Source: a virus. Taken from it: a DNA stretch of 64,000 bases. The notes beneath the pieces were generated by a model, which had not been told where the DNA came from, did not search any database, and saw only the letters and a program-made list of their open reading frames with translations. Position numbers and translations under genes: made by a program. This document shows, one piece after another, positions 1,924-64,000 of the stretch. Numbering within the stretch: the stretch's first letter is position 1; the number at the start of each line of letters is the position of its first letter. Location: the IMG/VR virus record IMGVR_UViG_3300030616_000002, positions 1 through 64,000 of that record. One strand, 5' to 3'.

Positions 1924-1952
1924 TAGTTACTATAGCTAGGATCGGTTGTCAA
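1924..1952 (-). promoter_or_regulatory. candidate leftward sigma70-like promoter
   Basis: Minus strand reads TTGACA (1952-1947), 17 nt spacer, TAACTA (1929-1924). It lies upstream of the minus-strand gene block. Confidence 0.35.
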
Positions 1953-2030: not shown

Positions 2031-2066
2031 TAAAACCTTGACACCGCTTGGCAAGCCCTTTATCTT
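2031..2066 (+). promoter_or_regulatory. candidate rightward promoter A (A-rich tract, -35 TTGACA, -10 TATCTT)
   Basis: TAAAACC TTGACA (2038-2043), 17 nt spacer, TATCTT (2061-2066). The spacer end CCCTTTATC is shared with promoter E at 34421-34449. Confidence 0.5.
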
Positions 2067-4704: not shown

Positions 4705-4735
4705 TTGACTTTCCAGGCTAGCTAGGCTAGGCTGG
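4705..4735 (+). promoter_or_regulatory. candidate promoter B with CTAG-box
   Basis: TTGACT (4705-4710), 17 nt spacer, TAGGCT (4728-4733). Overlaps GGCTAGCTAGGCTAGGCTGG (4716-4735). Confidence 0.45.
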
Positions 4736-4746
4736 CTTGCGGGCTT

Positions 4747-4758
4747 TGCAAATTTGCA
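4747..4758. promoter_or_regulatory. perfect 12-bp palindrome TGCAAATTTGCA (copy 2 of 5)
   Basis: Read directly. Lies 14 nt after the promoter B -10 candidate and 12 nt before ATG 4770. Confidence 0.65.
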
Positions 4759-4904: not shown

Positions 4905-5485
4905 GATACGAATCCATCCTGATCGACTGCCACTCGACAGCGAACGGTCTGAAGCGGGCGAGGACCAGAGGGGCAGCCGTAGTAGAACTACACAGGATCC
5001 TGGCCCTACTAGCCGGTCGCTATCTGGCGGGGGGCGGCCCGGGAATCGCGATCTACGGATCTGGGGATGGCCTACGCCGAGACGTAGCAGACACTGCCCA
5101 GCATTTAGGCCTGCCATTGGTGACGGGAAGGCTACAGGATCAGTTGCTGTTAGCGCTAGTATCGGACCATGCGAAGCGCGGTACAAGTTGCCTGATCGTG
5201 AGCGACGACCTCGGGGCTGCAGCGCACCTGGCAGATACCCCAGTACCGATCCACTGGCTAGAGGGCGTGACGGATACGCAGCGGCTCTGGACGCTGGCGG
5301 GGTTCATGCGACAGGGGCACGGCCGACCATTCGCCCAGAGCGACGGCAACGGCAGAGGGACGATCATAATCACAAGGCCGAGGGCAGATCTACAAGCACA
5401 TAGATGGTGGCTCGCCTCGTGCGGGGCGGAGGCGGCGTTGATGCCGGACTGCTGGCGGCGAATAGAAAGGCTGGCCCGTGACTAA
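4901..5485 (+). CDS. hypothetical protein (possible NYN/LabA-like fold)
   Basis: ORF track, 194 aa. The pattern ILIDCHSTANG ... CLIVSDDLGAAAHL is reminiscent of NYN-domain proteins; this is a weak call. Confidence 0.45.
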   Translation: MRYESILIDCHSTANGLKRARTRGAAVVELHRILALLAGRYLAGGGPGIAIYGSGDGLRRDVADTAQHLGLPLVTGRLQDQLLLALVSDHAKRGTSCLIVSDDLGAAAHLADTPVPIHWLEGVTDTQRLWTLAGFMRQGHGRPFAQSDGNGRGTIIITRPRADLQAHRWWLASCGAEAALMPDCWRRIERLARD

Positions 5486-6158
5486 CGAGCGATTGACCGG
5501 TCCGAGAACGCCCGAGGAAGACGGGCTGATTGTCTACGGGATCGACCCCGCGTCTCTGGGCGCGTGGCCCGATTTCGCCGACCGCGAGATCCGGGATCCT
5601 GCGCTGCCCCCAGACGTGATCCCGCGAGTAGAGGAGAGGCCGGATGGGACCGACTTGGACGCGCTGATCGACAAATATCTGGCCTACGAAGAGGATCGCT
5701 ACGTGATCCGATTCGCGTTACGGGGCAAAGGGCCGGCGGAGATCTCTGCTGCGTTCGATGCTATCGGCTGGCCGTGTCCAAAGGGTACGATAAAAGAGCG
5801 GCTCAACAAGTCAGTCGCGGTGTTATCCGCCGCCTACAAACTAGAGTGCGTAGACCGAGAGATCCGCGTATCGGCGTTGACCGAAAAGCAACATGCGATC
5901 TGGCGGTACTACCGGGCGGGCGAGACCTATCGGGGGATAGCCGAGGCGCTGGGATGCGGGACGCGCTTCGCCTTCGAGCAGATGGCTACGATAACCGAGA
6001 ATCTGCGAGCGGCCGGCTACGGCGAGATCGTTGACGCCGTAGACGCGCTAAGAAAAGCGATGGCCCCTGGGGGCCGAGGAAACATAAGCCGGATTAGTCC
6101 GGACGGAGGACACGATGGAGCCACATCCGATAGCGGGACTGTTCCCGCCGCTTCCTGA
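5478..6158 (+). CDS. HTH protein (LuxR / sigma-70 region-4-like C-terminal half)
   Basis: 226 aa. LTEKQHAIWRYYRAGETYRGIAEALGCGTRFAFEQM looks like a region-4 type helix-turn-helix. Confidence 0.4.
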   Translation: MTNERLTGPRTPEEDGLIVYGIDPASLGAWPDFADREIRDPALPPDVIPRVEERPDGTDLDALIDKYLAYEEDRYVIRFALRGKGPAEISAAFDAIGWPCPKGTIKERLNKSVAVLSAAYKLECVDREIRVSALTEKQHAIWRYYRAGETYRGIAEALGCGTRFAFEQMATITENLRAAGYGEIVDAVDALRKAMAPGGRGNISRISPDGGHDGATSDSGTVPAAS

Positions 6159-7158
6159 TGCCGAGTATCAGGAGCTAGTACAAGACATCCGAGATAACGG
6201 GCAGCGAGATCCGATCACGGTCTGGAAGGAAAACGGCAACGAGTGGATCGTTGATGGGTGCTCGCGGTTCAAGGCGTGCACCGAGATCGGGGCCGCGGTC
6301 AAGGTCGATTACGAGGAGTTCAGCGGCGACGGCGAGATCTTCGCGTTCGTTATGAGCCGGAATATGCGGCGGCGTCACATGGGTACGTCACAGAGATCGC
6401 TCCTCGCGGCCGAGCTAGCCCAGTACTACATGGACAATATCGCCCGGGACGATAGCGAGCAGAGCGCGAGCGCCGCGCTCAAGGAAACGGCGAAGGCACA
6501 GAGGGTATCCCCGCGCTCCGTTGCCTCGGGTAAGGCGCTAGAGATCGCTGGGGTAGATGAACTAGTCGCGCTGGTCAAGGGCGGAGACCTTGCGGTCAAC
6601 CCGGCCGAATTGGTAGCGAAGAGTTGTACTCCCGACGAGCAGCGGGCGCTAGTAGAGGCTGGGCCAAAGGCGGTCAGAAAGAAGGCAAAGGAGATCCGCG
6701 AGCAGAAGAAAAAGCAGCGGGCCGCGGAGAAGGCGTTGCGTGAGGCCGAGGCGCAGGCTGGTGTAAAGCCGGCGGAGGACGCTGCGCCAAGGCCTGATCC
6801 CGACAAGCCGCGAAAGAGCATAACGCTCGGCGCAGACAAGCCGCAGGGGCGCGACGCGATAGTTGAGTCGGAGCCGGAGCTAGAGCCCGAGGTTGAGCGC
6901 GACGACGCGATCTGCGGCGGTCCCGACTGCGGGCTGGTAGTCGACCCGGATCAGTGTATCCGGGCTGACGCCGATGGCTCGCGCGGGTATTTCTGCTCGC
7001 TAGCCTGCTTGCTCTCCGCAATGCTGGCGGGGATTGCGATCATAGATATCGAGATCATCGGCGGTAGCACGGCAGCGGAATTTCTCGCCGCCCTCGATAT
7101 CCCCGAGGCCAGGGCCGAGGCGGTGCGGGATGCCCTGAACAAGGCGCGCGTCGGATGA
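6115..7158 (+). CDS. ParB-like nuclease domain protein
   Basis: 347 aa. N-terminus HPIAGLFPPLPDAEYQELVQDIRDNGQRDPITVW...IVDGCSRFKAC is ParB/Srx-like. It has a Lys/Ala-rich linker and a Cys-rich C-terminus (CGGPDCG...FCSLAC). Confidence 0.7.
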   Translation: MEPHPIAGLFPPLPDAEYQELVQDIRDNGQRDPITVWKENGNEWIVDGCSRFKACTEIGAAVKVDYEEFSGDGEIFAFVMSRNMRRRHMGTSQRSLLAAELAQYYMDNIARDDSEQSASAALKETAKAQRVSPRSVASGKALEIAGVDELVALVKGGDLAVNPAELVAKSCTPDEQRALVEAGPKAVRKKAKEIREQKKKQRAAEKALREAEAQAGVKPAEDAAPRPDPDKPRKSITLGADKPQGRDAIVESEPELEPEVERDDAICGGPDCGLVVDPDQCIRADADGSRGYFCSLACLLSAMLAGIAIIDIEIIGGSTAAEFLAALDIPEARAEAVRDALNKARVG

Positions 7159-7571
7159 CTTGGCGGGACGCCAAGATCGGGATCGTTTGCGCGCTGATCG
7201 GGATGGCAGCCGGGGTTGTTGCGTACGCTATCGGAGCGCGCAGCGTTGAATCTGGGATCTCGGATCGCGTTGCTACCCTAGAAGCCTGCCTCTCTGCTGA
7301 CATGCTAGTGGAGGCGTCCCCTGATCCGTGTTTCCAGATCAGGGAGCGGATCCGTAACGAACGTACTGCCCTCTCCCTGGCCAAGGTATCGCTACGGTTG
7401 ACCCACAGGGTAGACGAGACAATGCGTACGCTCGACTCTACCTACTCTCAGCACGAGGCGGGTAGGCAGCGCGTGCCGTGGGTTAGGCGTGCGCTATGGC
7501 GGGCGGCGTATTGGATCAAGGGGGCCGGGGTAGGGGCACCAAGGCCAGAGGAGGTGGACCGTGGCGACTGA
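7155..7571 (+). CDS. membrane protein, hypothetical
   Basis: 138 aa with one N-terminal TM helix (IGIVCALIGMAAGVVAYAIG). ATGA overlap with the ParB-like gene. Ends in the EEVDRGD tail encoded by the junction motif. Confidence 0.5.
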   Translation: MTWRDAKIGIVCALIGMAAGVVAYAIGARSVESGISDRVATLEACLSADMLVEASPDPCFQIRERIRNERTALSLAKVSLRLTHRVDETMRTLDSTYSQHEAGRQRVPWVRRALWRAAYWIKGAGVGAPRPEEVDRGD

Positions 7572-7598
7572 CAACGAACAGGCTGACAGAGGGAGGGC

Positions 7599-7700
7599 AT
7601 GATGCGGGCAGAGATCCATCTTTGGTGTCTGTATTTGAGCTTTGTTCTGATGGCCGAGGCAGGGCTATTGCTTGCGTCGTTGAGGTTTTCCGGATGCTGA
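7599..7700 (+). CDS. hydrophobic micro-ORF (33 aa)
   Basis: Own translation: MMRAEIHLWCLYLSFVLMAEAGLLLASLRFSGC. GGGAGGG lies just upstream, and its stop overlaps ATG 7694 of the next gene. Confidence 0.3.
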   Translation: MMRAEIHLWCLYLSFVLMAEAGLLLASLRFSGC

Positions 7701-8548
7701 GTTCTACGCCTCGTCTGCCGACGATGGACTTCGCTGCGGATCTTGCAGAGTCGCTTGAGGTGCTGCGCGAGCACGAACCGGCAGAGGGCTACTACGGGCT
7801 ATTCTCCGGCGGCAAGGACTCGGTTGCGCTCAGGCACCTAGCCAAGATGGCGGGCGTCAAGGTGGCATGGCACTACAACGTCACCATAGACCCCCCGGAA
7901 CTTGTTCGCTTCATGCGTGAGCACTACCCGGACACCACCTGGCGTCGCTCGCCACACGGACCGTTCTTCAGGCGAGCAGCGGAGGTCAAGGGATTCCCGA
8001 TGGTGCGCCCGTGGCGAAACCGCTGGTGCTGTGATGAGTACAAGGAGCAGGGGAGCCCTCGGGGCGTGACGCTGCTGATGGGCGTGAGGGGCGAGGAGTC
8101 GGCATCGCGCGCCGCTGGCTGGGATGTCGTGGGGGAGTTTCGCAAGACCAAGACCAAGACGGTTGCGCCGCTCTATCGCTGGCCGAGCGATGACCTTTGG
8201 GACTTCATCCGTGGCGAGAGCGTGCCGTATTGCTCGCTCTATGATGAGGGATTCAAACGCCTAGGGTGCGTGGGCTGTCCCATGCCGGGTGCGGACGCAA
8301 GGCGCGCAGAGTTTGCACGTTGGCCACGGTTCGAGCAGCGATGGCAGTACGTTATTAAGCGCACATGGGAGCGCCGCAGCGGTACGACGCAGCGCGACGG
8401 GCAGCCGTGGTTCGGGTCGGCGTATTTCAAGGATTGGCGCGGGCTGTGGGAGTGGTGGCGTGACGGCTGTCGAGGCTTGCCTGCACCGAAAGACCCTTGC
8501 GGTATGAGCGCGGGGCCCTCGGAGCAGAACCAGGGAGGTGCGCGATGA
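7694..8548 (+). CDS. PAPS reductase-like PP-loop ATP pyrophosphatase family protein
   Basis: In frame with ORF 7496..8548. YYGLFSGGKDSVALRHLA is the SGGxDS PP-loop, and the C-terminal half is Cys-rich (WCC...CSLYDEGFKRLGCVGCP). Start chosen at ATG 7694, coupled to the upstream micro-ORF. Confidence 0.75.
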   Translation: MLSSTPRLPTMDFAADLAESLEVLREHEPAEGYYGLFSGGKDSVALRHLAKMAGVKVAWHYNVTIDPPELVRFMREHYPDTTWRRSPHGPFFRRAAEVKGFPMVRPWRNRWCCDEYKEQGSPRGVTLLMGVRGEESASRAAGWDVVGEFRKTKTKTVAPLYRWPSDDLWDFIRGESVPYCSLYDEGFKRLGCVGCPMPGADARRAEFARWPRFEQRWQYVIKRTWERRSGTTQRDGQPWFGSAYFKDWRGLWEWWRDGCRGLPAPKDPCGMSAGPSEQNQGGAR

Positions 8549-25140: not shown

Positions 25141-25152
25141 TGCAAATTTGCA
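25141..25152. promoter_or_regulatory. perfect 12-bp palindrome TGCAAATTTGCA (copy 3 of 5)
   Basis: Read directly; 28 nt upstream of GTG 25180. Confidence 0.65.
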
Positions 25153-28451: not shown

Positions 28452-30722
28452 ATGTCACAGAAAACGGCGGATGAGGCCATAAGCGCTGCGGAAGCGCTGG
28501 TGCGAGACATGATAGCTGGCGTTGAGCGCACTCGCGGCGGCGGGGAGTTGGGCGAGGAGCGTCGCAAGAACTTTGATTCAATCCTTCGATTTGCAAAAAA
28601 AGCGTTCCCGCACTGGGTGCCGGCGAGCTTCTCTGATTTGCATCGGCATCTAGACTTTGTCGGGCGCATGATCGCGCTCGGCGGGGGCGGTGCGAAGCGT
28701 GTTACCCTGGCCCCTCGCGGCAACGCGAAGTCAACTATCGTCTCCAAGATCTATACGATGTGGGCGATTGCTCACCAGGAGGAGATTTTCAACGAGTCGG
28801 GTCGACGGATCGATTGTATTATTCTGTTGAGCTATGCCCTCGCGCTGCCCGTTAGCTTCATGCTCGATATCAGGCGCGAACTAGAGAGCAATGATTATTT
28901 GCAGGAGTACTATCCCGAGATCTGCGGGCAGGGGGACCGCTGGACGGAGCGGCACATACGCACGCGCAACGGCGTGCACGTGGGCGCGGGCTCGACGGGC
29001 GGCAGTATCCGCGGATTCATCAAAGAGGCGTCTAGGCCGAAGCTGGTTATCTGTGACGATCTAGAGTCAATGGAGCATGCGCAAACTATCGGGCAGAGAG
29101 ACAAGGCCGAGAAGTGGTTGGATGAGGACGTGATACACGCGTCCGCTGCCGATGCGGACGTATGGGTTGTCGGGACGTTGGTGCACAGGGATTCGCTGCT
29201 CGCGCGGTTGGCCAAGGGCAACTGGGACGAGTCTCGATTCGAGGCGGTAATTCGGTGGGCAGACAACCAGGATATCTGGGACGAGTGGCGCGAGATCTAC
29301 CTTGATAAAGAGGGGGAGTTAGCGGACTCGCAGATCTACGCGGATACGCTGTGGAAGGCTACGGGCACCTGGCTCCGGGCCGAGGCGGCGAAGGGCGGAG
29401 AGATCGAGCAGATCGCATGGCCCCTGCTGCCCCGGTTCGAGGAAGACTGGGGCCGGGTTGTTGGCGAAAAGCCGAAGCGGCGGATGGCGCTTCGCAATTC
29501 TTTGATCAGTGCTTTGAACTTCTGCCGCAACTTTAGCGTTGAGATAGAGCGGGGCGATTTCTCGGAGGTCGTTGACTTCTGGGAGCGCTGCGTGTTCGAG
29601 CCGATCCGAGAGATCAAGGGCCGCAAGTCAAAGGCGTGGGAGTTCTTTCAAGAGCACAAGAGGGAGATGCTGGCCGGAACAATGGTGCTCTGGCCGGAGG
29701 TCGAGCCCTACTACAAGCTCATGTGCCAGAAGGCGGACACCCGGCGGGTAGCCTCGTGGTTCCAGGAGAAGCAGAACAAGATTCTCGCATCCGAGGACGC
29801 GGTATTCGGAAAGAACGTATGGACGTTCTGGGAGGCACCGAAGAACCCGGGGCCCCGCAATATGCTAGACACCATCATGGCGGACGCTGCGCAGCAGCGA
29901 TCGCAGGGGCACAAGTTAGACCTCGTTCTATTCATGGCCCTTGATCCGAGCATGGGCAAGGAATCCAAAAAGCATGACCCTGCGGCGATCGGGATCGTAG
30001 CCCGCATGCCTAACGGCCGCTGGCGGATCGTATGGGCTTTTATCCGTAGGGACAAGCCCAGCGCTATGTTTACGAGGCTATTGGATTACCAGCGGATCTA
30101 CAAGTGCAAGGTCGTTGTTATCGAGGCCAACCAGTTTCAGGAGTTATACGCAGACCAGATCGGCGATGCCGCGAGGGTTCTCGGCGAGCCGCTGCCGTAC
30201 AAGAAAAAGAAGAACCTAGAGAAGAAAGAGCTTCGGATCATGGGCCTTGAGCCCCACGTGGCGGCTGGTAATATTGAGTATCCGGCGCGCATAGTAGGAG
30301 ACGGAGAGCGGCAGGAGGCGATACCCGCGCTCCCCACCCTCTGGGAGCACTTCTCCTGCTTCGGCGAGACCGATGTACACGACGACGGGCCAGACGTAAT
30401 CGAGATGGCGTTTAGCGGCGGCATGAAGTGGCTTGAGGGCGTGCCCCTGCTGGCCGAGACCGAGTACGTGGGCGACGGGGTACTGGATGACATGGAGGCC
30501 GTTGTATTCGAGGATCCCAAAGACGCCGAGTGCCCGCATTGCGGGGCGCGCTTGATCGAGGGCTCGTATGTCTGCACTGAGTGCGAGCTGGAGATCGAGG
30601 GCGGGGCGAAGATTCCCGGGCCTTACCGGGATCCGGCCGAGGAAGAACGGCAAAAAGCAAGACAGGCTAGAGCGCGCAAGATGAGCATGATACAAAAAGC
30701 ACTCCTGGGTAAGTTCCGGTAA
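28452..30722 (+). CDS. terminase large subunit
   Basis: 756 aa. LAPRGNAKST (Walker A-like), LVICDDLES (Walker B-like), and a C-terminal RNaseH-like nuclease part (ALDPSMGK...VVVIEANQFQ...DDGPD). Confidence 0.85.
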   Translation: MSQKTADEAISAAEALVRDMIAGVERTRGGGELGEERRKNFDSILRFAKKAFPHWVPASFSDLHRHLDFVGRMIALGGGGAKRVTLAPRGNAKSTIVSKIYTMWAIAHQEEIFNESGRRIDCIILLSYALALPVSFMLDIRRELESNDYLQEYYPEICGQGDRWTERHIRTRNGVHVGAGSTGGSIRGFIKEASRPKLVICDDLESMEHAQTIGQRDKAEKWLDEDVIHASAADADVWVVGTLVHRDSLLARLAKGNWDESRFEAVIRWADNQDIWDEWREIYLDKEGELADSQIYADTLWKATGTWLRAEAAKGGEIEQIAWPLLPRFEEDWGRVVGEKPKRRMALRNSLISALNFCRNFSVEIERGDFSEVVDFWERCVFEPIREIKGRKSKAWEFFQEHKREMLAGTMVLWPEVEPYYKLMCQKADTRRVASWFQEKQNKILASEDAVFGKNVWTFWEAPKNPGPRNMLDTIMADAAQQRSQGHKLDLVLFMALDPSMGKESKKHDPAAIGIVARMPNGRWRIVWAFIRRDKPSAMFTRLLDYQRIYKCKVVVIEANQFQELYADQIGDAARVLGEPLPYKKKKNLEKKELRIMGLEPHVAAGNIEYPARIVGDGERQEAIPALPTLWEHFSCFGETDVHDDGPDVIEMAFSGGMKWLEGVPLLAETEYVGDGVLDDMEAVVFEDPKDAECPHCGARLIEGSYVCTECELEIEGGAKIPGPYRDPAEEERQKARQARARKMSMIQKALLGKFR

Positions 30723-32622: not shown

Positions 32623-33213
32623 ATGACGCAGCAGCGATCAACGGCAGAGGTACGCGCGCTTCTCGGCGATGAGTTCTTCGAGCAAGACGGCTTTGAGGAC
32701 TGGCCGGTCGAGCGGACCAAGCTCTCCGACTACAAGCCTGCGGACTATAACCCGCGGACGATCAGCGATGCCGGCCTGAAGAAGCTCGCCCGCTCCCTAA
32801 AGGCCAACGGGCGTCTCGATACGGTCGTCGTGAATCGGAGAACGGGCAACGTCGTATCGGGGCATCAGCGGTTCTCTGTCCTACTTGCTGCCGGCCTGAC
32901 CGAGACGTGGGCAACCGTGGTTGACGTCCCCGAGTATCGAGAGAAGGGGATGAACGTTGCTGCGAACAACCGGGATGCTCAGGGCGAGTTTGAGATGGAG
33001 GGGCTCGCGGAGCTACTGGGCGAACTGCAGGAGATAGACGCCCCGGATTTCAGCATCGAGGACACAGCGTTTGAGATCGGGGAGGTGGAGAGTATCGTCG
33101 CGACGGGCAACCTGCCTGCCACAGGACCGGAGCCCGATCCCGCGGAGCAGTCTGGCGGGGGCCGCACGGTCGAGTGCCCCAACTGCGGACACAGGTTCAA
33201 CCCGAATGACTAG
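32623..33213 (+). CDS. ParB-like nuclease domain protein (second copy)
   Basis: 196 aa. LSDYKPADYNPRTISDAGLKKLARSLKANGRLDTVVVNRRTGNVVSGHQR is a ParB N-terminal domain pattern. C-terminal CPNCGH zinc ribbon. Confidence 0.65.
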   Translation: MTQQRSTAEVRALLGDEFFEQDGFEDWPVERTKLSDYKPADYNPRTISDAGLKKLARSLKANGRLDTVVVNRRTGNVVSGHQRFSVLLAAGLTETWATVVDVPEYREKGMNVAANNRDAQGEFEMEGLAELLGELQEIDAPDFSIEDTAFEIGEVESIVATGNLPATGPEPDPAEQSGGGRTVECPNCGHRFNPND

Positions 33214-39036: not shown

Positions 39037-39122
39037 GGATGGTTGGCCGAATGGACTATGGCGCTGGTCTTGAAAACCAGTGGTCGAAAGACCTGGGGGT
39101 TCGAATCCCTCACCATCCTCCA
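39037..39122 (+). tRNA. tRNA-Ser (anticodon UGA), encoded CCA
   Basis: Hand-folded. Acceptor GGATGGT/ACCATCC; 3-bp D stem GCC/GGC; anticodon stem CTGGT/ACCAG with loop CTTGAAA; long variable arm GGTC-GAAA-GACC; T arm GGGGG-TTCGAAT-CCCTC; then T-CCA. Confidence 0.85.
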
Positions 39123-39124
39123 GG

Positions 39125-39210
39125 GGAGCGGTGCAGGAATGGCAACTGACCGGAGTGCTAATCCGAGGTCACCGGAAGGTGTGGAGGTTCGAGTCCTCCC
39201 CGCTCCGCCA
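39125..39210 (+). tRNA. tRNA-Ser (anticodon GCU), encoded CCA
   Basis: Hand-folded. Acceptor GGAGCGG/CCGCTCC; D stem CAG/CTG; anticodon stem CCGGA/TCCGA (one C-A mismatch) with loop GTGCTAA; long variable arm CACC-GGAA-GGTG; T arm GGAGG-TTCGAGT-CCTCC; then G-CCA. Confidence 0.7.
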
Positions 39211-40194: not shown

Positions 40195-40206
40195 TGCAAA
40201 TTTGCA
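40195..40206. promoter_or_regulatory. perfect 12-bp palindrome TGCAAATTTGCA (copy 4 of 5)
   Basis: Read directly; 39 nt upstream of the -35 of promoter F. Confidence 0.65.
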
Positions 40207-40296: not shown

Positions 40297-40755
40297 GTGC
40301 TAAAGAACTTCCTACTGCAGGCCAAGCACGGAGTCGACGCGGCGATGCGCAAGCTGCAAGCGGGCCCGCTGTCTGCCTACACGGGGAAGACGGTAATGCG
40401 GCACGGGAAGATCCTGCACGTGCTCTCGGCCTCGCGGCGTAAGGGAGTCAAGGTGCTCAACCAGGCGGGCGAGACCAACACGCTATCGCGGGACTCGTTT
40501 CTCTCGCGGAAGATCGTAATCGTGCCTACCCCGCCGGAGATGAGAAAGAAGCTCGCGCCGAGGTCGGTCCCCGACCAGGCCCACGATATCGCGATCAGCA
40601 CGGAGATCCCGGGGCCGACCAAGATCCGCCGCCTCTATGCGCTACGCAAGCAAGCGGACGAGGACGGGGATACCGCGGGCGTGAAGGCGTGCACTCATTA
40701 TATCGGCTTGCTCAAGCGGGGCGAGCCGATCAAGCGATGGAAGCCAGACCAGTAA
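40297..40755 (+). CDS. hypothetical protein
   Basis: ORF track, 152 aa. Confidence 0.55.
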   Translation: MLKNFLLQAKHGVDAAMRKLQAGPLSAYTGKTVMRHGKILHVLSASRRKGVKVLNQAGETNTLSRDSFLSRKIVIVPTPPEMRKKLAPRSVPDQAHDIAISTEIPGPTKIRRLYALRKQADEDGDTAGVKACTHYIGLLKRGEPIKRWKPDQ

Positions 40756-44522: not shown

Positions 44523-44731
44523 GAAGCGAGATCATCACGGGCGACGTAACGGAGGTGCTAGCCGGTATGGCTGCGAAGTCGGTACACCTGTGTATCACGT
44601 CTCCACCGTACTGGGGGCTGCGGCAATACTTAGTTGACAACGCGGTTTGTTTGCGCCACGATTTGACGGAAGATGAGGTAGCGTTCGTCACAAAGGAGCT
44701 TGAAAAACATGGCGTCAAACCGAAACTCTGA
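44519..44731 (+). CDS. DNA N4/N6-methyltransferase, N-terminal fragment (motif IV SPPY)
   Basis: 70 aa. CITSPPYWGLRQY (to 44629), then an unrelated tail and a stop. The conserved enzyme sequence resumes at about 45298. Confidence 0.65.
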   Translation: MRSEIITGDVTEVLAGMAAKSVHLCITSPPYWGLRQYLVDNAVCLRHDLTEDEVAFVTKELEKHGVKPKL

Positions 44732-45297
44732 TGGTACGTTCAAAAAGGGCAGTCATTGGCGAAAGCCGAAGCTATACTGGAATAAGAAGTGGCTTCTACG
44801 CGAGTACGTCACCAAGCAGCAAAGCGCCAAGGAAATTGCAGATCACGCCGGATGTTCCGAGAACAGCATTTTTAACTGGTTAACAAAACACGGCATTAGG
44901 CGACGTTCTATTTCCGAAGCGCGTTCAATTAAGTATTGGGGAGCACAAGGATCAGCCAATCCAATGTTCGGTCGTTGCGATAAGGCTAATCCAAATTGGC
45001 GCGGTGGTGTCTCGCCGGAACGGCAGAAGTTGTATGCACGCTCAATGTGGAAGGCGATCAGAAAGGCAGTGTTCTCTCGGGACAATTTCTCTTGCCGCCG
45101 ATGCGGAGAAAAACCAGTCGGGCACAAGCAACTTCACACTCACCACCTAAGAGCATGGGCTAGAGACCCCGCGTTACGATTCGACGTGGACAATATCATT
45201 ACTCTGTGCCGGGGATGTCACGAGTGGATTCACAGCAAGGAGAACAAAAACCGTGAATTTCTGGAGTAAGGACGAAATACCGATCCACCTTCAGGAG
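44630..45297 (+). mobile_element. HNH endonuclease insertion 1 splitting the methyltransferase gene
   Basis: Bounded by a duplicated TACTT (44627-44631 and 45298-45302). Visibly lower GC. Contains the HNH ORF with its own SD. Confidence 0.55.
44709..45269 (+). CDS. HNH homing endonuclease
   Basis: In frame with ORF 44700..45269. ATG 44709 follows AAAGGAG. CRRCGEKPVGHKQLHTHHL...NIITLCRGCHEWIH is an HNH motif, and the N-terminal part has an HTH-like segment (SAKEIADHAGCSENSIFNWL). Confidence 0.8.
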   Translation: MASNRNSDGTFKKGSHWRKPKLYWNKKWLLREYVTKQQSAKEIADHAGCSENSIFNWLTKHGIRRRSISEARSIKYWGAQGSANPMFGRCDKANPNWRGGVSPERQKLYARSMWKAIRKAVFSRDNFSCRRCGEKPVGHKQLHTHHLRAWARDPALRFDVDNIITLCRGCHEWIHSKENKNREFLE

Positions 45298-47696: not shown

Positions 47697-48647
47697 ATGA
47701 AGCGCAATGTTGAGATAGCAGCAGAAATGGCGCAACGCTTGATCGAATACGCCGAGAGCGACAAGAACAAGCCGATCAGAAAGTACAAGCCGCCCAAGCG
47801 AGACCGTAGCAAATCGGCAGACGAGGAAACCCTGGTTCTACTTCATTCGGACAGCCAGATCGCACACCTTACGCCAACCTACAATTTCGAGATCTTCAAA
47901 CAGCGCAACACAAGGCTGGTAGAGAGAACCCTGCGGGTCGCGGACCTTGACCGCAAGGGCCGACCGATCAACCACGTCGAGCTGTTCTTGCTCGGTGATA
48001 TCATACATGGAGAGCGGGTAGGTAGGACCGTCGACCTTGATGAGCTAGAGGATACGGTTGCCGTTGCCATGTTCGACGTGGCGCTGCCGGGCCTCGAATA
48101 CGTAATAAACAACCTCGCACAGAATTTCAATTCTGTTGGAGTTCGTTGCGTCCGCGGCAACCACGGGATCGTGAGCAGGGACAACGCCCTTACGACCAAC
48201 TGGGACTATATAATCTGCAAGATCTTGGAGCGCGAGTATCGCAACAACCCGCACGTCAAGTTCTCTGTACCGAGTACGTTCTACCATATTCAGGACGTGA
48301 TGGGCTGGCGGTTCTTCCTTGCGCACGGGGACAAGATCAACATGTGGATGAACGTCCCGATCTACGGGATCGTCCAGAAGCTCATGCGCTGGGCCGGCAG
48401 TATCGGCGCGTTCGATTACGCCACGTTCGGCCACTTCCACAACCACGCGGACATGGACTGGAACGACAAGCGCTTTTTCATCAACGGCAACTTCACAACA
48501 GATGACCAGTGGGCGATCAAGACGCTCGGGCTCAAGGGCTCGTGCTCGCAGATGTTGCTTAACGTGCACCGGAAACTCGGGGTCGTCAATCAGCGGAAGA
48601 TCCACCTTGAGCAGTTCGAGCGTAGGACAAAGCAGGAGGCGTCATGA
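47697..48647 (+). CDS. calcineurin-like metallophosphoesterase
   Basis: 316 aa. LLHSDSQIAH, LLGDIIHGE, VRGNHG, LAHGDK and GHFH are the metallophosphoesterase signature blocks. Confidence 0.75.
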   Translation: MKRNVEIAAEMAQRLIEYAESDKNKPIRKYKPPKRDRSKSADEETLVLLHSDSQIAHLTPTYNFEIFKQRNTRLVERTLRVADLDRKGRPINHVELFLLGDIIHGERVGRTVDLDELEDTVAVAMFDVALPGLEYVINNLAQNFNSVGVRCVRGNHGIVSRDNALTTNWDYIICKILEREYRNNPHVKFSVPSTFYHIQDVMGWRFFLAHGDKINMWMNVPIYGIVQKLMRWAGSIGAFDYATFGHFHNHADMDWNDKRFFINGNFTTDDQWAIKTLGLKGSCSQMLLNVHRKLGVVNQRKIHLEQFERRTKQEAS

Positions 48648-49267
48648 TGCAGTTAACCGAGGGGCAGGAGGCGGCGCTAGAGGTACTGCGGGCCAGCGAA
48701 CAGCCCATGACCACGGCATCCGTATTCGAGGGGTCTGGCGGGCTCGTATGCAAGAGCAGGAGCAATACGCGGCGGGTCCTTGTGGGCTTGGTCAAGCGGG
48801 GGCTTGTCGCTCGCGTAGGGACTGGCGAGTGGGCGGCGGTAGAGAACGGAGCGGCTAGCCCCGAAAAAGGGTCTATTTTTGTGACAGACGGCGAGGCAAA
48901 GCAGATCATCGGCGCTGCTCTGGCGTTCTACTTTGAATCCCTGCTCAAGACGGATCCCGAGGGGGCAGCGCGGGTAGCCTATACGGCAGGGCTACACAAG
49001 GTCGGGATGCCGCGGAGGACGCAGAAGAAAGCGGATGAACCGAAGCCGGAGCCGAAGCGTAAGGCGCTCCCTAAAAAGCTGACGCTTCAGAAGTTCTGCG
49101 GGAAGGCGGAGGCCGCATATCGGGCTGGCCGTTTTTCGTTAGACGAGTTGAGCGACGCGACGGGGCTCGGCCGCGACTACCTGCGGAAGATCATCCAGGG
49201 CAAGGCGCACCCGAGAGACGAGACCCTGGAGAAGATCTACGCGGCGGTAGAGGAGCACTTGTCATGA
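48644..49267 (+). CDS. DNA-binding protein (winged-helix N-terminus, HTH C-terminus; candidate)
   Basis: 207 aa. RRVLVGLVKRGLVARVGTGEW and LSDATGLGRDYLRKIIQG. Confidence 0.4.
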   Translation: MMQLTEGQEAALEVLRASEQPMTTASVFEGSGGLVCKSRSNTRRVLVGLVKRGLVARVGTGEWAAVENGAASPEKGSIFVTDGEAKQIIGAALAFYFESLLKTDPEGAARVAYTAGLHKVGMPRRTQKKADEPKPEPKRKALPKKLTLQKFCGKAEAAYRAGRFSLDELSDATGLGRDYLRKIIQGKAHPRDETLEKIYAAVEEHLS

Positions 49268-55663: not shown

Positions 55664-58273
55664 ATGGCCAAAGAAAAGCTAACGCTGGTTAGACGCCAGA
55701 ATGGGCCAGATCTCGTCTTCTACGATGACGCGTGGGAACCCCGCGTAATCAAGATCGGCGAGTGGATCTCCGCCGTCGATCCGGTAGCCAAACTACCAGA
55801 GTTAGGCAGGCCGGAGCCGTTGCCTGGCGACGCAGAGCCAGCGGGACCGGTGTTCGTAAAGGGCGGCGTCAGGGTTCAGATCTTCCGCTCGCAGAAGAGT
55901 AGGGAAGCGCAGCAGGCAGCAGATGATAGTCCGGGGATCGATCGGCCAGAACGACACGGAGAACTCGCCAAGATCCGCGGGGGCAAGGAAGACTTCACGG
56001 CGACAACCGCGATTCTAATTCCCGAGGGCGGCCCGCGATCCGCTGACGCTGAGGGCTCTTGCGTAAGAGCGAAGGCTATAAGGATAGGGGAAGATGGGAT
56101 CCCCGCCGCGCTAAAGGACTTATCGCCGGATATCTACTGGGTGCTCGTACTCAACGGGCCAGAGCCGCCGCAGCAGGGGCAGCTTTTAGCAGCAGTTGAG
56201 AAACTAGACAGGAGTAGCGCGGCCCTCATCCAGATCTCGTGTGGCGTGGTGTGCTCGGCCCAGACGCTCAAGAGCCTACCTACAGACGCAACGACCAAGG
56301 CAAGCGATTTACCGAAAATAGCAGCGGCAAAGGGCGCTGCTACGATCAACGGCAAAGAGATCGTGATCAAGCTGCCTGGTATTACTGTGCCCAAGGGTCG
56401 GCCGAAAAAGTCGGCGGTCGGCGTAGTGGTCACGGTCCACAACGCGCTGCGGGCTACGTCGTACTGCCTCGAATCCCTGAAGCGCTTTGACTTCGGCGGC
56501 GGACTGAACCCCCGCGTGATCGTGGTCGACGACGAATCAGCGCCACACGTCGAAAAGAAACTCCGCGCTATCTGCGGGGAGAACAAGTGGATCTACAAGC
56601 GCAACATAACCCGGCAGGGATATACGCGCACGGTTACCTCCGGGCTAGATCACGCAGTTAAGCTCGGCTGCAAGTGGATCTGTATTCTCAACTCGGATAC
56701 ACTGGTTACTCCGGGCTGGCTCTACAAGCTGGTAAGGGCCGGTGAAACGGATCCAAAGATCGGCATGGTCGGGCCCTACTCTAATGCAGCGGTCCACTTG
56801 TCTCTGCCGCAGTGGCTACTAAAGGGAGAGGACCCGGTATCTATTGCGGGCAAGCTCGCGCTCACCTCGAAGCGCTGCTATCCCGATGCCCTGACCCCTA
56901 CCGGCTTCTGTCTGCTCCTTTCAAGCGAGGCGTGGAAAAAGCACAGGCCATTCCGGGACGATATCTACGGAGAGGCGTACGGCGAGGAAACCGAGTTCTG
57001 GGCGCAACTGGTCAAGGGCGGGGGGCGCGCGATCTTGGCCGACGACGCCTTTGTCTGGCACCAGGGCCACGCGTCCTACGGGCAGGAGCAAGGCCACGTT
57101 GCCGAGGGATTCGCTGTTGCAAAGTTCAAGGCACGGCACGGCGCATTGCTCCAGCAGAAGGCCCACGACTTCAACGCCACGGCGCACGAGCGGATACTAT
57201 ATCAGGCCAATAGGTTCCCGCAGGGGACGATGAGCAGGCGTCCGCGGATCGCGTTCTTCGCTCACGAATATGGGTTGTACGGCGGCGTCCTGGCTATCGC
57301 CAATATCGTTAACCGCCTGATCGTGCTCGGCTGGGATGCACGGATCGCGGTTCGGGTTATCCGCAACAAAGCGATCGACGCGTTGCCCCTGCTTACCCAC
57401 CCGGTACCGTTCGGCTCCAAGGCCAACTTCATGAATCACTTTGCGTCGGAGATGTTCGATAGCGGGATTCTCTGCGCTACGGTTTGGGATACGGCGTTCC
57501 CGGTTGCCGAGGTAGCGAAGATCAACAAGGGGATCAAGCCCTGCTACTTCATCCAAGACGATGAAACCACTTTCACGGATCCCGATGGCGAACGGTTTGT
57601 TTCCGCAGGCCCGGTAATCGAGTCCTACTCCCACATCCGAAAGAAGATCGTTAACTCGAAGTGGGTCGTTGATCGGATCGCCGGAGAGCACAAGGTCGAC
57701 GGCTGTGTCTATATCCCGGTCGGAGTAGATACCAACCTATTCCACCCGCGGCATAGAGAGGACTCGACGCCAACGGTACTGTTCTTCTGCCGTCCAGAGA
57801 CACCGCGCCGCGGGGCAGATCTAGTACAGCGGGTATGCAGCGAGTTGACCGCGCGCTACCCGGATCTCCGCCTTGTAACCTACGGCGGGACACTGCCGAA
57901 TATGCCGGCGGCCGTCGAGCAACTAGGAACGATCCCGCAGGAAGAGGCCGCGCAGATCTACTCGCAGGCAGACGTATTCCTGGAGGCTTCGCACACGCAG
58001 GGATTCGGATTGCAGGGGCTAGAGGCGATGGCCTCAAGATGTGCGGTGGTATCAACGCGTAACCGCGGAATCGACAACTACGGGCGGGACCAGCAGAACT
58101 GCACGCTCATAGATATTGGCGATCAAGAAGCGGCCGTAGGCGCGATCGTAGAGCTGATCGAAGATCATAGCAAGCGCCAGCGCTACGTTGATGCCGGAAT
58201 GGAGACCGCTGCCGAGTTCGATTGGTGGCGGATTGCGGAGCAGTGGGACAAGGAATTGAGGAAGCTGTTGTGA
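55664..58273 (+). CDS. bifunctional glycosyltransferase (unknown N-domain + GT2 + GT4/GT1-type domain)
   Basis: 869 aa. GT2 part: VGVVVTVHNA...VIVVDDESAP...ILNSDTLV (DxD-like). C-terminal GT1 part: VLFFCRPETPRRGADL...ADVFLEASHTQGFGLQGLEAMASRCAVVST (E-x7-E type motif). Confidence 0.8.
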   Translation: MAKEKLTLVRRQNGPDLVFYDDAWEPRVIKIGEWISAVDPVAKLPELGRPEPLPGDAEPAGPVFVKGGVRVQIFRSQKSREAQQAADDSPGIDRPERHGELAKIRGGKEDFTATTAILIPEGGPRSADAEGSCVRAKAIRIGEDGIPAALKDLSPDIYWVLVLNGPEPPQQGQLLAAVEKLDRSSAALIQISCGVVCSAQTLKSLPTDATTKASDLPKIAAAKGAATINGKEIVIKLPGITVPKGRPKKSAVGVVVTVHNALRATSYCLESLKRFDFGGGLNPRVIVVDDESAPHVEKKLRAICGENKWIYKRNITRQGYTRTVTSGLDHAVKLGCKWICILNSDTLVTPGWLYKLVRAGETDPKIGMVGPYSNAAVHLSLPQWLLKGEDPVSIAGKLALTSKRCYPDALTPTGFCLLLSSEAWKKHRPFRDDIYGEAYGEETEFWAQLVKGGGRAILADDAFVWHQGHASYGQEQGHVAEGFAVAKFKARHGALLQQKAHDFNATAHERILYQANRFPQGTMSRRPRIAFFAHEYGLYGGVLAIANIVNRLIVLGWDARIAVRVIRNKAIDALPLLTHPVPFGSKANFMNHFASEMFDSGILCATVWDTAFPVAEVAKINKGIKPCYFIQDDETTFTDPDGERFVSAGPVIESYSHIRKKIVNSKWVVDRIAGEHKVDGCVYIPVGVDTNLFHPRHREDSTPTVLFFCRPETPRRGADLVQRVCSELTARYPDLRLVTYGGTLPNMPAAVEQLGTIPQEEAAQIYSQADVFLEASHTQGFGLQGLEAMASRCAVVSTRNRGIDNYGRDQQNCTLIDIGDQEAAVGAIVELIEDHSKRQRYVDAGMETAAEFDWWRIAEQWDKELRKLL

Positions 58274-59031
58274 ACTGGGACAAGCCAGACCGCAACTTCG
58301 TGATCATGGGCATGGCCCGGAGCGGGACTAGCCTTGCCTGTAAGCTGGTCAGTGAGCAGGTAAGAAACTCCTACTGCCTCAACGACGCAGAGATCAACTT
58401 CAACAAGGTGCCAGCACTGCTGGCCGAAACCCGTAGGTGCCTGGTCAATCGAGAGCCCGTCACTAACCGCTTCAGGGGCGATGAGCTTTCAAGCGATACG
58501 GTTCGGGTACTAGCTCCCTTGGAGCCGCGAGTAGCAACCGGAGACTTTAATAGCAACGCCGCAGTCGGCGTGAAAATGATCCCGGAGTACCGCAAGGCGA
58601 TTGCTGCTGGGTATCTCGTAATCGCTATGCTTCGAGATCCGGTCTATGCGATCGCTAGCTGGGGAAGCCACGATATCGCGTGGGCCCACGTTACCGACGA
58701 CGACATGGATCCGATCTGGCGATATAGGGGGATCAAGTTCAAGATGAGTTCGCAGGTCGAGCGGCAGTGCGAGATCTGGGAGTTCTTTGCAAAGCAGATC
58801 CTAGAGGCCAAGGCTAGCGGCAAGGTACAGGTTGATGTCTGGAAATACGAGGGCCTTGTAGCGTTGCCCGATCTTCATATCCGAGACTTTGCTAGCTACT
58901 TCGGGCTCGCGGCAAAGCGCGGAGTCCGCCTGGCCAACCTGAACGACCCATCGCGATTCTACGGAATAAGAACAATCCGTGACGCCGTCGCGGAGCTTTG
59001 CCCATCAAGGCTGGAGTTCGGTTATGCCTGA
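58270..59031 (+). CDS. sulfotransferase family protein (type B paralog 1)
   Basis: In frame with ORF 58222..59031, from GTG 58270 (GTGA overlap). MGMARSGTSLA is a 5'-PSB-like loop and AMLRDPVYAIAS is a 3'-PB-like motif. Confidence 0.7.
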   Translation: MNWDKPDRNFVIMGMARSGTSLACKLVSEQVRNSYCLNDAEINFNKVPALLAETRRCLVNREPVTNRFRGDELSSDTVRVLAPLEPRVATGDFNSNAAVGVKMIPEYRKAIAAGYLVIAMLRDPVYAIASWGSHDIAWAHVTDDDMDPIWRYRGIKFKMSSQVERQCEIWEFFAKQILEAKASGKVQVDVWKYEGLVALPDLHIRDFASYFGLAAKRGVRLANLNDPSRFYGIRTIRDAVAELCPSRLEFGYA

Positions 59032-59803
59032 CCTCGTAATTACTGGCCCGTGTCGCAGCGGTACGGCACTATTGCACACGCTGGTCAACGATTATGTGCC
59101 CAACGCGATCTGCACCAATGAGGTGGTGAACAAAGGAATCGCTGGGCTGAAGGCATACTTCGCTGCGACCCGCAAGGCAGTCAACGCGGGCAAGCCGATC
59201 GCCAATCGCTACGCGCGAGACGGGTCCTTATCTGATAACTCCTGGCGCAAGGGCGCGGAGATACAACGCCGCGTAGTCGAGAAGCCGCTAGAGGGTGACT
59301 GGCTTATGGCTACAAAGGTCATGCTTGGGTGCATGGATCATATTCCCGAGATCGTTGACCTCGGATTCCCCGTTGCCGTGATAGTCCGAGATCCTGTCTA
59401 TACTCTGGGCTCATGGGGGGACCCGAAGACCAGGGGACAGACGGTCGGGCGTATCACGGAAAACGACATGCACAAGTGGTGGGAGAAACACCCGTTCCCG
59501 TTCAACAGGATCGATGCAATCGGAAGACGAGCGGAATACTGGAACTACCTGGCCAGCACGATCTACGAGTCGATCTGTATTGCCCCTAAGGGCACGGTAC
59601 GATTGTTCCGTTACGAGGATCTCGTAACCGATACGATTGGCGAGTTGCAGAAGATTACCAAATGGTTTGATATGGACGATCCGATCGGTGCGCCAAAGCT
59701 CAAGAGCGCCAACAGAGACGATCGATACCCAGTGAGGATGGGTGAGATCAAAAAGGTTGTCGGGAGGCTTTGCCCGATACGGGATAAGTTTGGATACAAA
59801 TAG
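59024..59803 (+). CDS. sulfotransferase family protein (type B paralog 2)
   Basis: In frame with ORF 58979..59803, from ATG 59024. TGPCRSGTALL and VIVRDPVYTLGS. Confidence 0.7.
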   Translation: MPDLVITGPCRSGTALLHTLVNDYVPNAICTNEVVNKGIAGLKAYFAATRKAVNAGKPIANRYARDGSLSDNSWRKGAEIQRRVVEKPLEGDWLMATKVMLGCMDHIPEIVDLGFPVAVIVRDPVYTLGSWGDPKTRGQTVGRITENDMHKWWEKHPFPFNRIDAIGRRAEYWNYLASTIYESICIAPKGTVRLFRYEDLVTDTIGELQKITKWFDMDDPIGAPKLKSANRDDRYPVRMGEIKKVVGRLCPIRDKFGYK

Positions 59804-59812
59804 GAGGGACTG

Positions 59813-60922
59813 ATGCGCTTTCTGTTCATAGGCGCGCACTATCCAGCGCTGCGAAGGGAACTGCGGAAGCTCGGCCACGAGTGCAAGGACGTTGACCACT
59901 GGGCCCTCTTCTGCAGGCGCGGGGCGCTGGCTGCCGCGGAGTCTTGCCACCCAGAGGGTACCGAGGGCGGTACGCAGTCGGCAGTCAATGATCATGTTCG
60001 CCGCGTAGCGCTTGAGTACAAACCTGATGTTATCGTGCAGTGGAAAGGCTGGATCGACGGGGCTCGCTTTATTCTCCCCGATACGATCAGCTACCTGAAG
60101 GATGAGTTAGATTGCCTGACCGTTTACTGGAGCGTTGACGATCCCGATTTCGTCGGCTTCTGGCGGCAGCACATGAGCGGGATCGGCGTCTGGGATGTGG
60201 CCCTTACCTGCTGCGCTGCGAGCAAAGAGATCTACCGAAAGGCTGGAGTCAGATATCCTCACTATTTCCTGCCGGCCTTTGATACCGAGTGGCCGATCGA
60301 TACGCTCGAAGGCGAACGCGAAACCGCGGATCTCGTTGTCGCTGGTCACTCCTACGCCCCGATCCACGGGGCAGACATGGGGCGGGCAGCCTTCGCGCTA
60401 GCGGTCAAGCGGGCGGGCTACAAGGTGGAGATCTACGGGCCCAACCCGGAGATGTGGACGACTCCGGGCGGTATCTTGGTAACAGGGCACCCGGAGCTAA
60501 GGGAATGTTACCGGGGCTGGCTACAGCATGACGACGTGTGGAAGGCGTATATCCGCGGCAAGGTCGTGCTCAACAACCATCTGCGAAAGGGCGGGGGATA
60601 CGACAAGCGATACACGGGCTACTGCAACGACAAGATCTTTCAGATCGCCGGGGCCAACGGCGCAACGCAGCTCATGGATTACCAGCCGGGGATCTCTCCG
60701 GACGTATATACTGCGGGCCTAGAGTTCGTACAGTATCGCAAAAGCCTAGAGCCGCAGGAGTGCCTTGATTCGGCTTTTGAGATCTTCGAGGACCTAATCG
60801 CTAACGACGACGTTAGGTACGGCATGCGGGATGCTGCGCGCAAGCGCACGCTAGCCGAGCACACATGGAGACACCGAGCCGAGCAGCTTATGCAAATTTG
60901 CAAAACAGGAGGAAAGGGGTAG
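59813..60922 (+). CDS. CgeB-like glycosyltransferase (candidate)
   Basis: 369 aa. The overall layout and the C-terminal ...RKRTLAEHTWRHRAEQL resemble CgeB/DUF3880-type GT1-like proteins (recalled). Confidence 0.5.
   Translation: MRFLFIGAHYPALRRELRKLGHECKDVDHWALFCRRGALAAAESCHPEGTEGGTQSAVNDHVRRVALEYKPDVIVQWKGWIDGARFILPDTISYLKDELDCLTVYWSVDDPDFVGFWRQHMSGIGVWDVALTCCAASKEIYRKAGVRYPHYFLPAFDTEWPIDTLEGERETADLVVAGHSYAPIHGADMGRAAFALAVKRAGYKVEIYGPNPEMWTTPGGILVTGHPELRECYRGWLQHDDVWKAYIRGKVVLNNHLRKGGGYDKRYTGYCNDKIFQIAGANGATQLMDYQPGISPDVYTAGLEFVQYRKSLEPQECLDSAFEIFEDLIANDDVRYGMRDAARKRTLAEHTWRHRAEQLMQICKTGGKG
60891..60902. promoter_or_regulatory. perfect 12-bp palindrome TGCAAATTTGCA (copy 5 of 5)
   Basis: Read directly; 23 nt upstream of ATG 60925, inside the 3' end of the preceding gene. 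Confidence 0.65.
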
Positions 60923-60924
60923 AG

Positions 60925-61662: not shown

Positions 61663-61671
61663 GGAGGAATT

Positions 61672-63571: not shown

Positions 63572-63572
63572 C

Positions 63573-64000
63573 ATGGGCCCAGCAGAGCACAAGATGTTCC
63601 AAGCCCTAAACGGCACGTTCCCTGAAAAGATAGACTTGATCAACTCGCCGGTTGAGCGCAAGCTACACTTGGGCTCCGGCGTTGAGGTTGACCCGAAGTG
63701 GACCAACATTGATCGGTCGTACGCAAAGCCGCTGCCGAAACAGGGCAAGCAAGTACAGCTTGACATCTTGCGCCTGAATGAACACTACAAGCCGGGCTCC
63801 GCGGATTTGATCTTGAGCCATCATGTTGTCGAACACCTGAGTTACCGGGTTGTGCTAGACGCGATCAAGCAGTGGGCCGAAATTCTAGCCCCGGGCGGCT
63901 GTATGTATATCTGCGTGCCTGAGGTAGCATGGGCTATTGACTGCGCGCGCGGCGGGCCTCACTGGGCCCTACAGCCCGACTATAGGCGCGGCAAGTTCGA
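63573..64000 (+). CDS. class I SAM-dependent methyltransferase (partial, runs off window end)
   Basis: Own translation: MGPAEHKMFQALNG...LHLGSGVEVDPKWTNID...ADLILSHHVVEHL...LAPGGCMYI. Methyltransf_11-like pattern. Confidence 0.6.
   Translation, partial: MGPAEHKMFQALNGTFPEKIDLINSPVERKLHLGSGVEVDPKWTNIDRSYAKPLPKQGKQVQLDILRLNEHYKPGSADLILSHHVVEHLSYRVVLDAIKQWAEILAPGGCMYICVPEVAWAIDCARGGPHWALQPDYRRGKF

Follow-up and report, generated by a model that had tools for sequence, protein, structure and literature searches.

Which protein, if any, reads a short palindrome that is scattered over the genome of an uncultivated virus? The question is raised by a stretch of 64,000 base pairs (bp) from IMG/VR record IMGVR_UViG_3300030616_000002 (positions 1 to 64,000; below, the window means this whole stretch), in which the 12-bp palindrome TGCAAATTTGCA is present in four perfect copies and one near-perfect copy. 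The palindrome is a real feature of this genome and is almost certainly functional. That it is the operator of a two-fold symmetric and most likely phage-encoded DNA-binding protein, controlling the heads of several modules, has about an even chance of being correct. The evidence for an operator consists of over-representation, strict palindromy that ends at the edges of the core, location in rare intergenic gaps, and one copy lying over the predicted start of a strong sigma70-like promoter. A dimeric DNA-binding protein is favoured because the two-fold symmetry is strict over the 12-bp duplex.

Recurrence of the palindrome

The five sites are as follows (nt, nucleotides).

Site 1: 1983–1994, reads CGCAAATTTGCA; in a 292-bp divergent intergenic region, between a leftward and a rightward TTGACA promoter
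Site 2: 4747–4758, perfect; in a 76-bp gap after dnaB, ending 11 nt before ATG 4770
Site 3: 25141–25152, perfect; in a 145-bp gap heading the packaging module, ending 27 nt before GTG 25180
Site 4: 40195–40206, perfect; in a 106-bp gap heading the beta-clamp module, beginning 5 nt past the stop codon 40188–40190
Site 5: 60891–60902, perfect; within the last 10 codons of gene 59813–60922, ending 22 nt before ATG 60925

Site 1 matches TGCAAATTTGCA at 11 of 12 positions and carries the fifth occurrence of the 10-bp core GCAAATTTGC (1984–1993). The half-sites TGCAAA and TTTGCA adjoin without a gap, with AT at the centre, and at site 3 the palindrome extends to 14 bp (ATGCAAATTTGCAT). Along the genome, the sites are spaced 3–21 kb apart.

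The expected number of chance copies of TGCAAATTTGCA in the window is 0.01, as computed from 100 dinucleotide-preserving shuffles, none of which contained four copies. When up to two mismatches were allowed, only positions 17201 and 26662 were added, both intragenic, with 1.25 expected by chance. Beyond the four perfect copies and the near-perfect one there is only background, so the family is sharply delimited. No other 12-bp palindrome recurs within the window, and five of the six occurrences of AAATTT in the 64 kb are the palindrome sites themselves. According to the contig's own gene calls, the non-coding share of the window is 4.7%, and four of the five sites are located there (binomial P = 2.3e-5). 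Chance origin of the sites is ruled out by the expectation of 0.01 copies, the sharp mismatch distribution, and this non-coding bias.

The copies, their coordinates, and the expectation of 0.01 given in the preliminary description of this DNA were all confirmed on recount. A pattern search in the rest of the genome had also been proposed there. The window corresponds to positions 15–64014 of the 94,112-bp metagenome contig ENA ERZ27252234 k141_1547066, and no further copy was found in the next 9.6 kb of the contig, so the count of five copies covers 73.6 kb of the 94,112 bp.

Outside the 12-bp core, the flanks are essentially unrelated, and a longer repeat or a duplicated segment is ruled out. 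Since only the core is common to them, the five sites are under selection and maintained independently of one another. Flank similarity among the five barely exceeds the null (p about 0.04); a weak A-tract is located 7–9 nt downstream of sites 1, 3, and 4, the 14-mer TGCAAATTTGCAAA is common to sites 2, 4, and 5, and all five flanks align best in gene direction. No degenerate second copy was found within 45 bp of any site, where the best neighbouring matches have 5–6 mismatches, as in the null distribution. The sequence TTTGCAAA was considered as a related weak site and rejected; its extra copies at 28590, 58786, and 61625 are all intragenic and probably coding coincidences.

Position of the sites relative to genes and promoters

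The window represents a new uncultivated phage known from a metagenome. It encodes an O-like replication initiator, DnaB, a ParB-like protein beside a PAPS-reductase-like protein, a large terminase, a T4-type portal, a prohead protease, a Gp23-type capsid protein, the pol III beta clamp, an HNH protein, and an N6/N4 methylase. Sites 2, 3, and 4 mark module boundaries: site 2 follows dnaB, and sites 3 and 4 precede the packaging genes and the clamp module, respectively. Three sigma70-like promoters were predicted near sites 1 and 2.

1924–1952, minus strand: leftward sigma70-like promoter, TTGACA-N17-TAACTA, with the -35 box at 1952–1947
2038–2066, plus strand: rightward sigma70-like promoter, TTGACA-N17-TATCTT, with the -35 box at 2038–2043
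4705–4733, plus strand: sigma70-like early promoter, TTGACT-N17-TAGGCT, with the -10 box TAGGCT at 4728–4733; contains the TTGACTTTC box

Site 1 is the centre of a longer imperfect dyad, T5-N7-site-N7-A5, and its own centre lies at about -71.5 from the presumed start of the leftward promoter and at about -85 from that of the rightward one. The rightward promoter serves the replication module, composed of a 75-amino-acid (aa) gene, the O-like initiator, and DnaB. Site 2 begins 13 nt past the -10 box of the 4705–4733 promoter, which places it at about +7 to +18 (centre about +12). This promoter is a consensus match, and its -35 box is kept in two relatives. Near site 3, no sigma70-like promoter was found. 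Site 4 ends 39 nt upstream of a weak -35-like TTGCCG (40245) of a predicted promoter TTGCCG-N17-TAAGGG, and lies at about -80. Site 5 encodes residues 360–363 of a 369-aa glycosyltransferase, in a non-conserved C-terminal tail at the end of the Pfam domain; AGGAGG follows downstream, and then ATG 60925 of a sulfotransferase-like gene. The distances to promoters and start codons in the preliminary description agree with these values. Its claim that every site sits in one kind of regulatory context fails, as the geometry is mixed and two sites have no recognisable promoter.

Two side observations belong here. In the divergent control region 1947–2043, there are two back-to-back TTGACA promoters, the T5...A5 dyad, a (CG)5 run, and a change of sign of the GC skew, and a 15-bp palindrome, GCAAAAAGTTTTTGC (1953–1967), abuts the -35 box of the leftward promoter. 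Given its position just upstream of the O-like initiator and DnaB, this region may also hold a replication origin. A different repeat, GCTAGCTAGG(CTAG), is found at 2373, 4717, 24136, 34461, and 44504, and partly at 40277, always on the plus strand. It is located in promoter spacers, 5' leaders, and gene ends, and the gaps of sites 2 and 4 contain both this repeat and the palindrome.

Proposed regulation and candidate binding proteins

If the palindrome is an operator, a dimer bound at site 2 over the start of the early promoter would block initiation or promoter escape, provided that the predicted promoter is a real one. Sites 1 (in the divergent early control region) and 4 (ahead of the clamp-module promoter) would be bound by the same protein, which would act there from upstream. 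Sites 3 and 5 adjoin ribosome-binding sites inside transcription units; at these, the bound protein could be a roadblock to elongating polymerase, similar to a stoperator, or could have some other effect not exerted at a promoter. The binder would be one of the helix-turn-helix (HTH) or ParB-like proteins encoded in the window, for which three candidates were recognised.

5478–6158, plus strand: candidate binder of 226 aa with a C-terminal HTH; HTH_23 E = 1.8e-4 (below the Pfam cut-off), GerE E = 0.15
6115–7158, plus strand: ParB-like candidate binder of 347 aa; phrog_4715 E = 3.5e-14, TIGR00180 parB E = 2.8e-5 (below the cut-off)
48644–49267, plus strand: candidate binder of 207 aa with a C-terminal XRE-type HTH; HTH_3 24.9–27.7 bits, above the cut-off of 23

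The first and the third of these had already been proposed as binders; their HTH matches are weak. For the 226-aa protein, no match was obtained in PDB, PHROG, or NCBIfam. The N-terminus of the 207-aa protein has a weak winged-helix match (HTH_IclR, E = 0.004). The ParB-like protein, which had not been listed before, is at least as good a candidate as the two HTH proteins. It has weak matches to RepB and Noc models and a weak alignment to Helicobacter pylori ParB (4umk), and it has DGCSRFKA in place of the canonical ParB box GERRxRA. Its AlphaFold model, with a predicted local distance difference test score (pLDDT) of 44, is unusable, being too poor for a fold search or for a central HTH to be made out. 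On present evidence, no candidate binder is preferable to the others.

Two further small proteins were looked at. The predicted structure of the 75-aa early protein (pLDDT 60) has no beta strand for a ribbon-helix-helix fold and is too poor for a fold search. The 44-aa open reading frame (ORF) after site 2 is unlikely to encode a small repressor, given its low-complexity sequence with a high content of charged residues. As a side observation, there are two ParB_N-like proteins, within 6115–8548 and 32623–33213: the 347-aa protein, paired with the PAPS-reductase-like protein, and a 196-aa protein directly after the portal gene. At the place of the latter, the relative L011 has a fusion of ParB_N and N6/N4-methylase.

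If the five sites form an operator set, they would give a first clue to regulation in a phage lineage that is uncultivated and has no other annotation. The motif would then show which modules are controlled together: the start of replication, the early genes, the packaging and clamp modules, and a part of the glycan/sulfotransferase island. It is speculation that control of the early genes is coupled to that of the glycan island, as the preliminary description had suggested. If true, the highly specific 12-bp operator and its small binder could serve as an orthogonal switch.

Conservation in relatives and other evidence against an operator

The nearest relatives were drawn from 5.8 billion proteins; they are few and fragmentary, with about 27 kb of DNA in total. 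Two were recognised by DnaB (L007 of 7.2 kb and L008 of 1.7 kb, 70–71% identity), two by the large terminase (L011 of 7.4 kb, 77% identity; L012 of 5.2 kb, 46% identity), and one by the clamp (L133 of 5.4 kb, 51% identity). No close relative of the window was found among sequenced phages (INPHARED) or in IMG/VR, nor did metagenome scans with the tail protein and DnaB reveal one. An IMG/VR scan with ATGCAAATTTGCAA gave single chance matches among the matches listed, three of them in high-G+C sequences without homology to the window.

Several results weigh against the palindrome being an operator. In the approximately 27 kb of L007, L008, L011, L012, and L133, to which the proposed pattern search was extended, there are no copies of the motif at up to two mismatches (up to three for L007). 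At the position syntenic to site 2, the relatives keep the TTGACTTTC promoter box, which is followed by tRNA-Asn and other genes and no palindrome. At the position syntenic to site 4, upstream of the homologue of 40297–40755, the relative carries another hairpin and a tRNA end, again with no palindrome. The missing conservation removes the strongest kind of computational support. The geometry is also unfavourable, as the positions relative to promoters differ (+12 at site 2, -71.5/-85 at site 1, -80 at site 4, and none at sites 3 and 5), and the distances of 39, 52, and 47 bp between site and -35 centre do not place the sites on one helix face. The promoters themselves are consensus matches only, and the counts of the promoter tool do not exceed those in its shuffles. 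As for the binder, the HTH matches of the candidates are weak and the structure models are of low confidence, and none of three candidates searched in IMG/VR has a relative there in which co-occurrence with the motif might be seen. Finally, the scanned ORFs include no recognised integrase or CI-type repressor.

The motif is lineage-specific and lies in variable junctions, and no other recurring palindrome was found in the fetched relatives. Because pairs of operator and regulator diverge fast, absence in the relatives neither confirms nor refutes function. Absence of the motif from relatives that keep the adjacent promoter makes it a small test case for the speed of operator and regulator turnover in phages. 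An operator for a dimeric regulator, as suggested in the preliminary description, is still the best explanation for copy number, symmetry, and placement, but it is only partly supported and gains nothing from conservation.

Alternative explanations

The palindromes could be loading sites of the ParB-like protein 6115–7158, similar to parS or OB, by which the genome is organised, partitioned, or silenced at long range, in the manner of KorB on plasmid RK2 or SopB on prophage N15. This is unlikely, although several facts fit. The ParB-like gene (phrog_4715 E = 3.5e-14) is located 1.4 kb downstream of site 2, and the sites are few and dispersed 3–21 kb apart. Sites of the ParB family are short perfect palindromes with widely variable promoter position (PMC11790492; PMC7205306), and this would explain the mixed geometry. 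The size class of ParB sites, i.e., palindromes of about 13–16 bp in one or few copies, is matched by the 12-bp core, which reaches 14 bp at site 3, and by the five dispersed copies. Against this stand the ParB matches, all of which are under the curated cut-offs, the nucleotide-binding box reading DGCSRFKA instead of GERRxRA, and the HTH domain, which is unconfirmed in a model of pLDDT 44. Neither a ParA nor a KorA-like partner gene was seen among about 50 scanned proteins, and pairs of ParB-like protein and PAPS-reductase are common in phages without known parS. Moreover, L007 has similar-sized proteins in the same order (judged by size and order, not by homology), yet the motif is absent from its 7.2 kb. 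A more specific form, in which the ParB-like protein loads at the five palindromes, slides as a clamp, and silences or insulates modules at long range as KorB does, is distinctly improbable. If true, control of the KorB kind would operate not in a plasmid but in a large phage whose capsid is T4-like, and the variable positions relative to promoters would be explained.

Quite unlikely, too, is a host protein, either a global regulator or a nucleoid protein, which the phage would have recruited to time or insulate its modules. The motif is absent from the relatives although they retain the candidate phage proteins and their order, which fits a host-specific factor, and the core resembles the inner part of LuxR-type boxes (10 of 12 positions in traO; all 10 inner positions in luxXc). 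The outer CTG/CAG arms that define lux boxes are, however, not conserved at the five sites. The preliminary description had named a common repeat of the host genome as a finding that would speak against its interpretation; no copies at up to two mismatches were found in 21 kb of the best candidate contig for the host lineage, from the same sample, a sample too small to settle the matter.

Non-regulatory sites, i.e., targets of a nuclease or recombinase (for example the HNH protein 44709–45269) or junctions of cassette exchange, are very unlikely. An exact 12-mer without a degenerate family is typical of such targets, there are insertions and deletions against the relatives around sites 2 and 4, where the relatives carry tRNA and other small genes, and the HNH gene adjoins a DNA methylase gene. 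Flanking repeats or an adjacent mobile gene were found at none of the sites, however, and the target of a homing endonuclease or recombinase would be expected to exceed 12 bp. A phage is also expected to shed sites that are cut by its own nuclease unless they are protected, and nothing links the HNH gene to the motif.

An element acting at the RNA level in leaders before ribosome-binding sites, such as a translational operator or an RNase site, is extremely improbable: sites 2, 3, and 5 are located 11–27 nt before start codons, directly 5' of the Shine-Dalgarno sequence, and the five flanks align best in gene direction, but the hairpin has 4 bp and -2 kcal/mol, folding in context is no better than in shuffles (z-scores -1.4 to +0.6), no site has an Rfam match, transcripts probably do not extend over site 1, flanked by divergent promoters, or site 4, which precedes a promoter, except by read-through, and strict two-fold symmetry would be purposeless in a 4-bp stem.

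Further classes of elements were rejected. An intrinsic terminator or structured RNA is ruled out by the 4-bp stem of -2 kcal/mol, the lack of a T run and of an Rfam match, and the z-scores of -1.4 to +0.6. For a sigma54 promoter (-24/-12), GG is expected 12 bp upstream of the GC of TTGCA, and it is missing at all five sites; the bases preceding the sites are GGCG, GCTT, CCGA, CCAG, and CTTA, and TGGC is in register at none of them. A promoter core is ruled out as the ribosome-binding site and start codon follow too closely behind sites 2 and 5, and a promoter of T4-late type or a class II activator site by the start-codon spacing and the lack of GG. Operators of LacI/PurR type are palindromes of 14–18 bp with a central CG step; here, the half-sites directly abut and the centre is AT, which rules out this type.

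Resemblance to described systems

Dispersed palindromic operators are already well known, and an arrangement of this kind is unsurprising to a phage biologist. The most similar system is that of mycobacteriophage BPs, whose repressor gp33 has a 12-bp palindrome as its target; four identical copies lie in small intergenic regions, one of them at the early lytic promoter, and there is one degenerate copy (PMC4557955). The palindrome described here is likewise perfect over 12 bp, with a near-identical census and placement. There is no sequence relationship between the two, and a homologue of gp33 was not detected in the phage. The BPs operator is bipartite, with a degenerate partner 5 or 8 bp away, whereas no partner half-site is present here, and a bipartite operator of this type is ruled out, as the best neighbouring matches have 5–6 mismatches, equal to the null. 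BPs is temperate with integration-dependent immunity, and here no lysogeny genes were recognised. A role as BPs-like lysogeny repressor is unsupported because neither an integrase nor a CI-type repressor was recognised among the scanned ORFs.

The stoperators of Cluster A mycobacteriophages (L5 gp71 type) are similar in that a regulator acts on many short intergenic sites. The bound regulator blocks elongation and also represses a promoter (PMC9283540, PMC6550527), and such a block of elongation would explain sites 3 and 5. Stoperators are asymmetric, 13–14 bp long, bound by a monomer, and orientation-dependent, with 20–30 per genome, in contrast to the strict palindrome with five copies in 73.6 kb.

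In plasmid RK2, the KorA operator OA (GTTTAGCTAAAC) and the KorB operator OB (TTTAGCGGCTAAA; PMC11790492) are also repeated short perfect palindromes at variable distance from promoters. KorB is a binder of the ParB family, and a ParB-like gene is present here. RK2 is a plasmid and not a phage, KorB has the canonical CTP-binding box and an HTH, and no KorA-like partner was identified in the phage. The prophage N15 has four dispersed palindromic sites, IR1–IR4, bound by SopB of the ParB family (PMC7205306). It differs by its sopAB partition operon and the lifestyle of a linear plasmid prophage; the phage described here has shorter sites, and neither ParA nor a protelomerase was seen in it.

Literature matches to the sequence of the palindrome are mostly the model dodecamer d(CGCAAATTTGCG)2, plus the luxXc box of Xanthomonas. 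In the luxXc box of XccR, CCTGGCAAATTTGCCAGG, i.e., CCTG[GCAAATTTGC]CAGG, the inner 10 bp are identical to the core. The traO box of TraR, ATGTGCAGATCTGCACAT, has the inner part ATG[TGCAGATCTGCA]CAT, which matches at 10 of 12 positions, its inner 12 bp being one symmetric change away from the motif. LuxR-type boxes are 18–20 bp long and have their specificity in the outer arms, whereas nothing is conserved beyond +/-6 at the five sites (bases at +/-7: T, A, A, A, G, T, A, T, G, G). Membership in the LuxR-type boxes is ruled out, as the CTG...CAG arms are absent and the only GerE-like match in the window has E = 0.15. The resemblance is to be taken as a lead from sequence and not as membership.

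Other features of the genome

The large terminase (28452–30722, 756 aa) has no Pfam match. Its nearest matches in cultured phages are from transposable Mu/D3112-like Pseudomonas phages, with about 31% identity. A Mu/D3112-like terminase with a T4-type portal, protease, and capsid is an unusual combination.

Just downstream of the capsid genes, a glycan island of ~12 kb extends from 55664 to 64000 and on to about contig position 68,100 (to 15171 in L006). It encodes glycosyltransferases, one of them an 869-aa fusion of GT2 and GT4, at least four sulfotransferase-like proteins, and several S-adenosylmethionine (SAM) methyltransferases. Together with the early PAPS-reductase-like, radical-SAM, and NAD epimerase genes, the predicted content of the island suggests a sulfated glycan made by the phage.

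A sequence commoner than the palindrome, (G)AGGAGGTGGACCGTG, was found in twelve copies on the plus strand, at 7553, 8562, 8827, 9041, 9366, 9730, 10168, 10479, 12063, 12280, 12527, and 12783. Each copy represents a conserved translation-start cassette, in which the GTG start codon of a small early gene follows a Shine-Dalgarno sequence at a constant spacing of 4 nt. The copies at 7553 and 10168 run on into near-identical gene starts. The cassette, which is absent from the fetched relatives, recalls the start-associated sequences described in Cluster K mycobacteriophages (PMC3203893).

Two tandem tRNA-Ser genes were identified at 39037–39122 (anticodon TGA) and 39125–39210 (anticodon GCT), on which the gene caller had overlaid an 89-aa ORF. 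The relatives have tRNA genes at other junctions, e.g., tRNA-Asn after dnaB in L007. The closest cellular homologue of the beta clamp, with 45% identity, is encoded on L132, a contig of 134 kb from the same sample (ENA ERZ27252234 k141_2746678), in a bacterial dnaA-dnaN-gyrB origin region with G+C content of 64.7%. Among named clamps, those of Geothermobacter, Anaeromyxobacter, and Myxococcota come next. By its sequence, the clamp homologue on L132 is a possible pointer to the host lineage.

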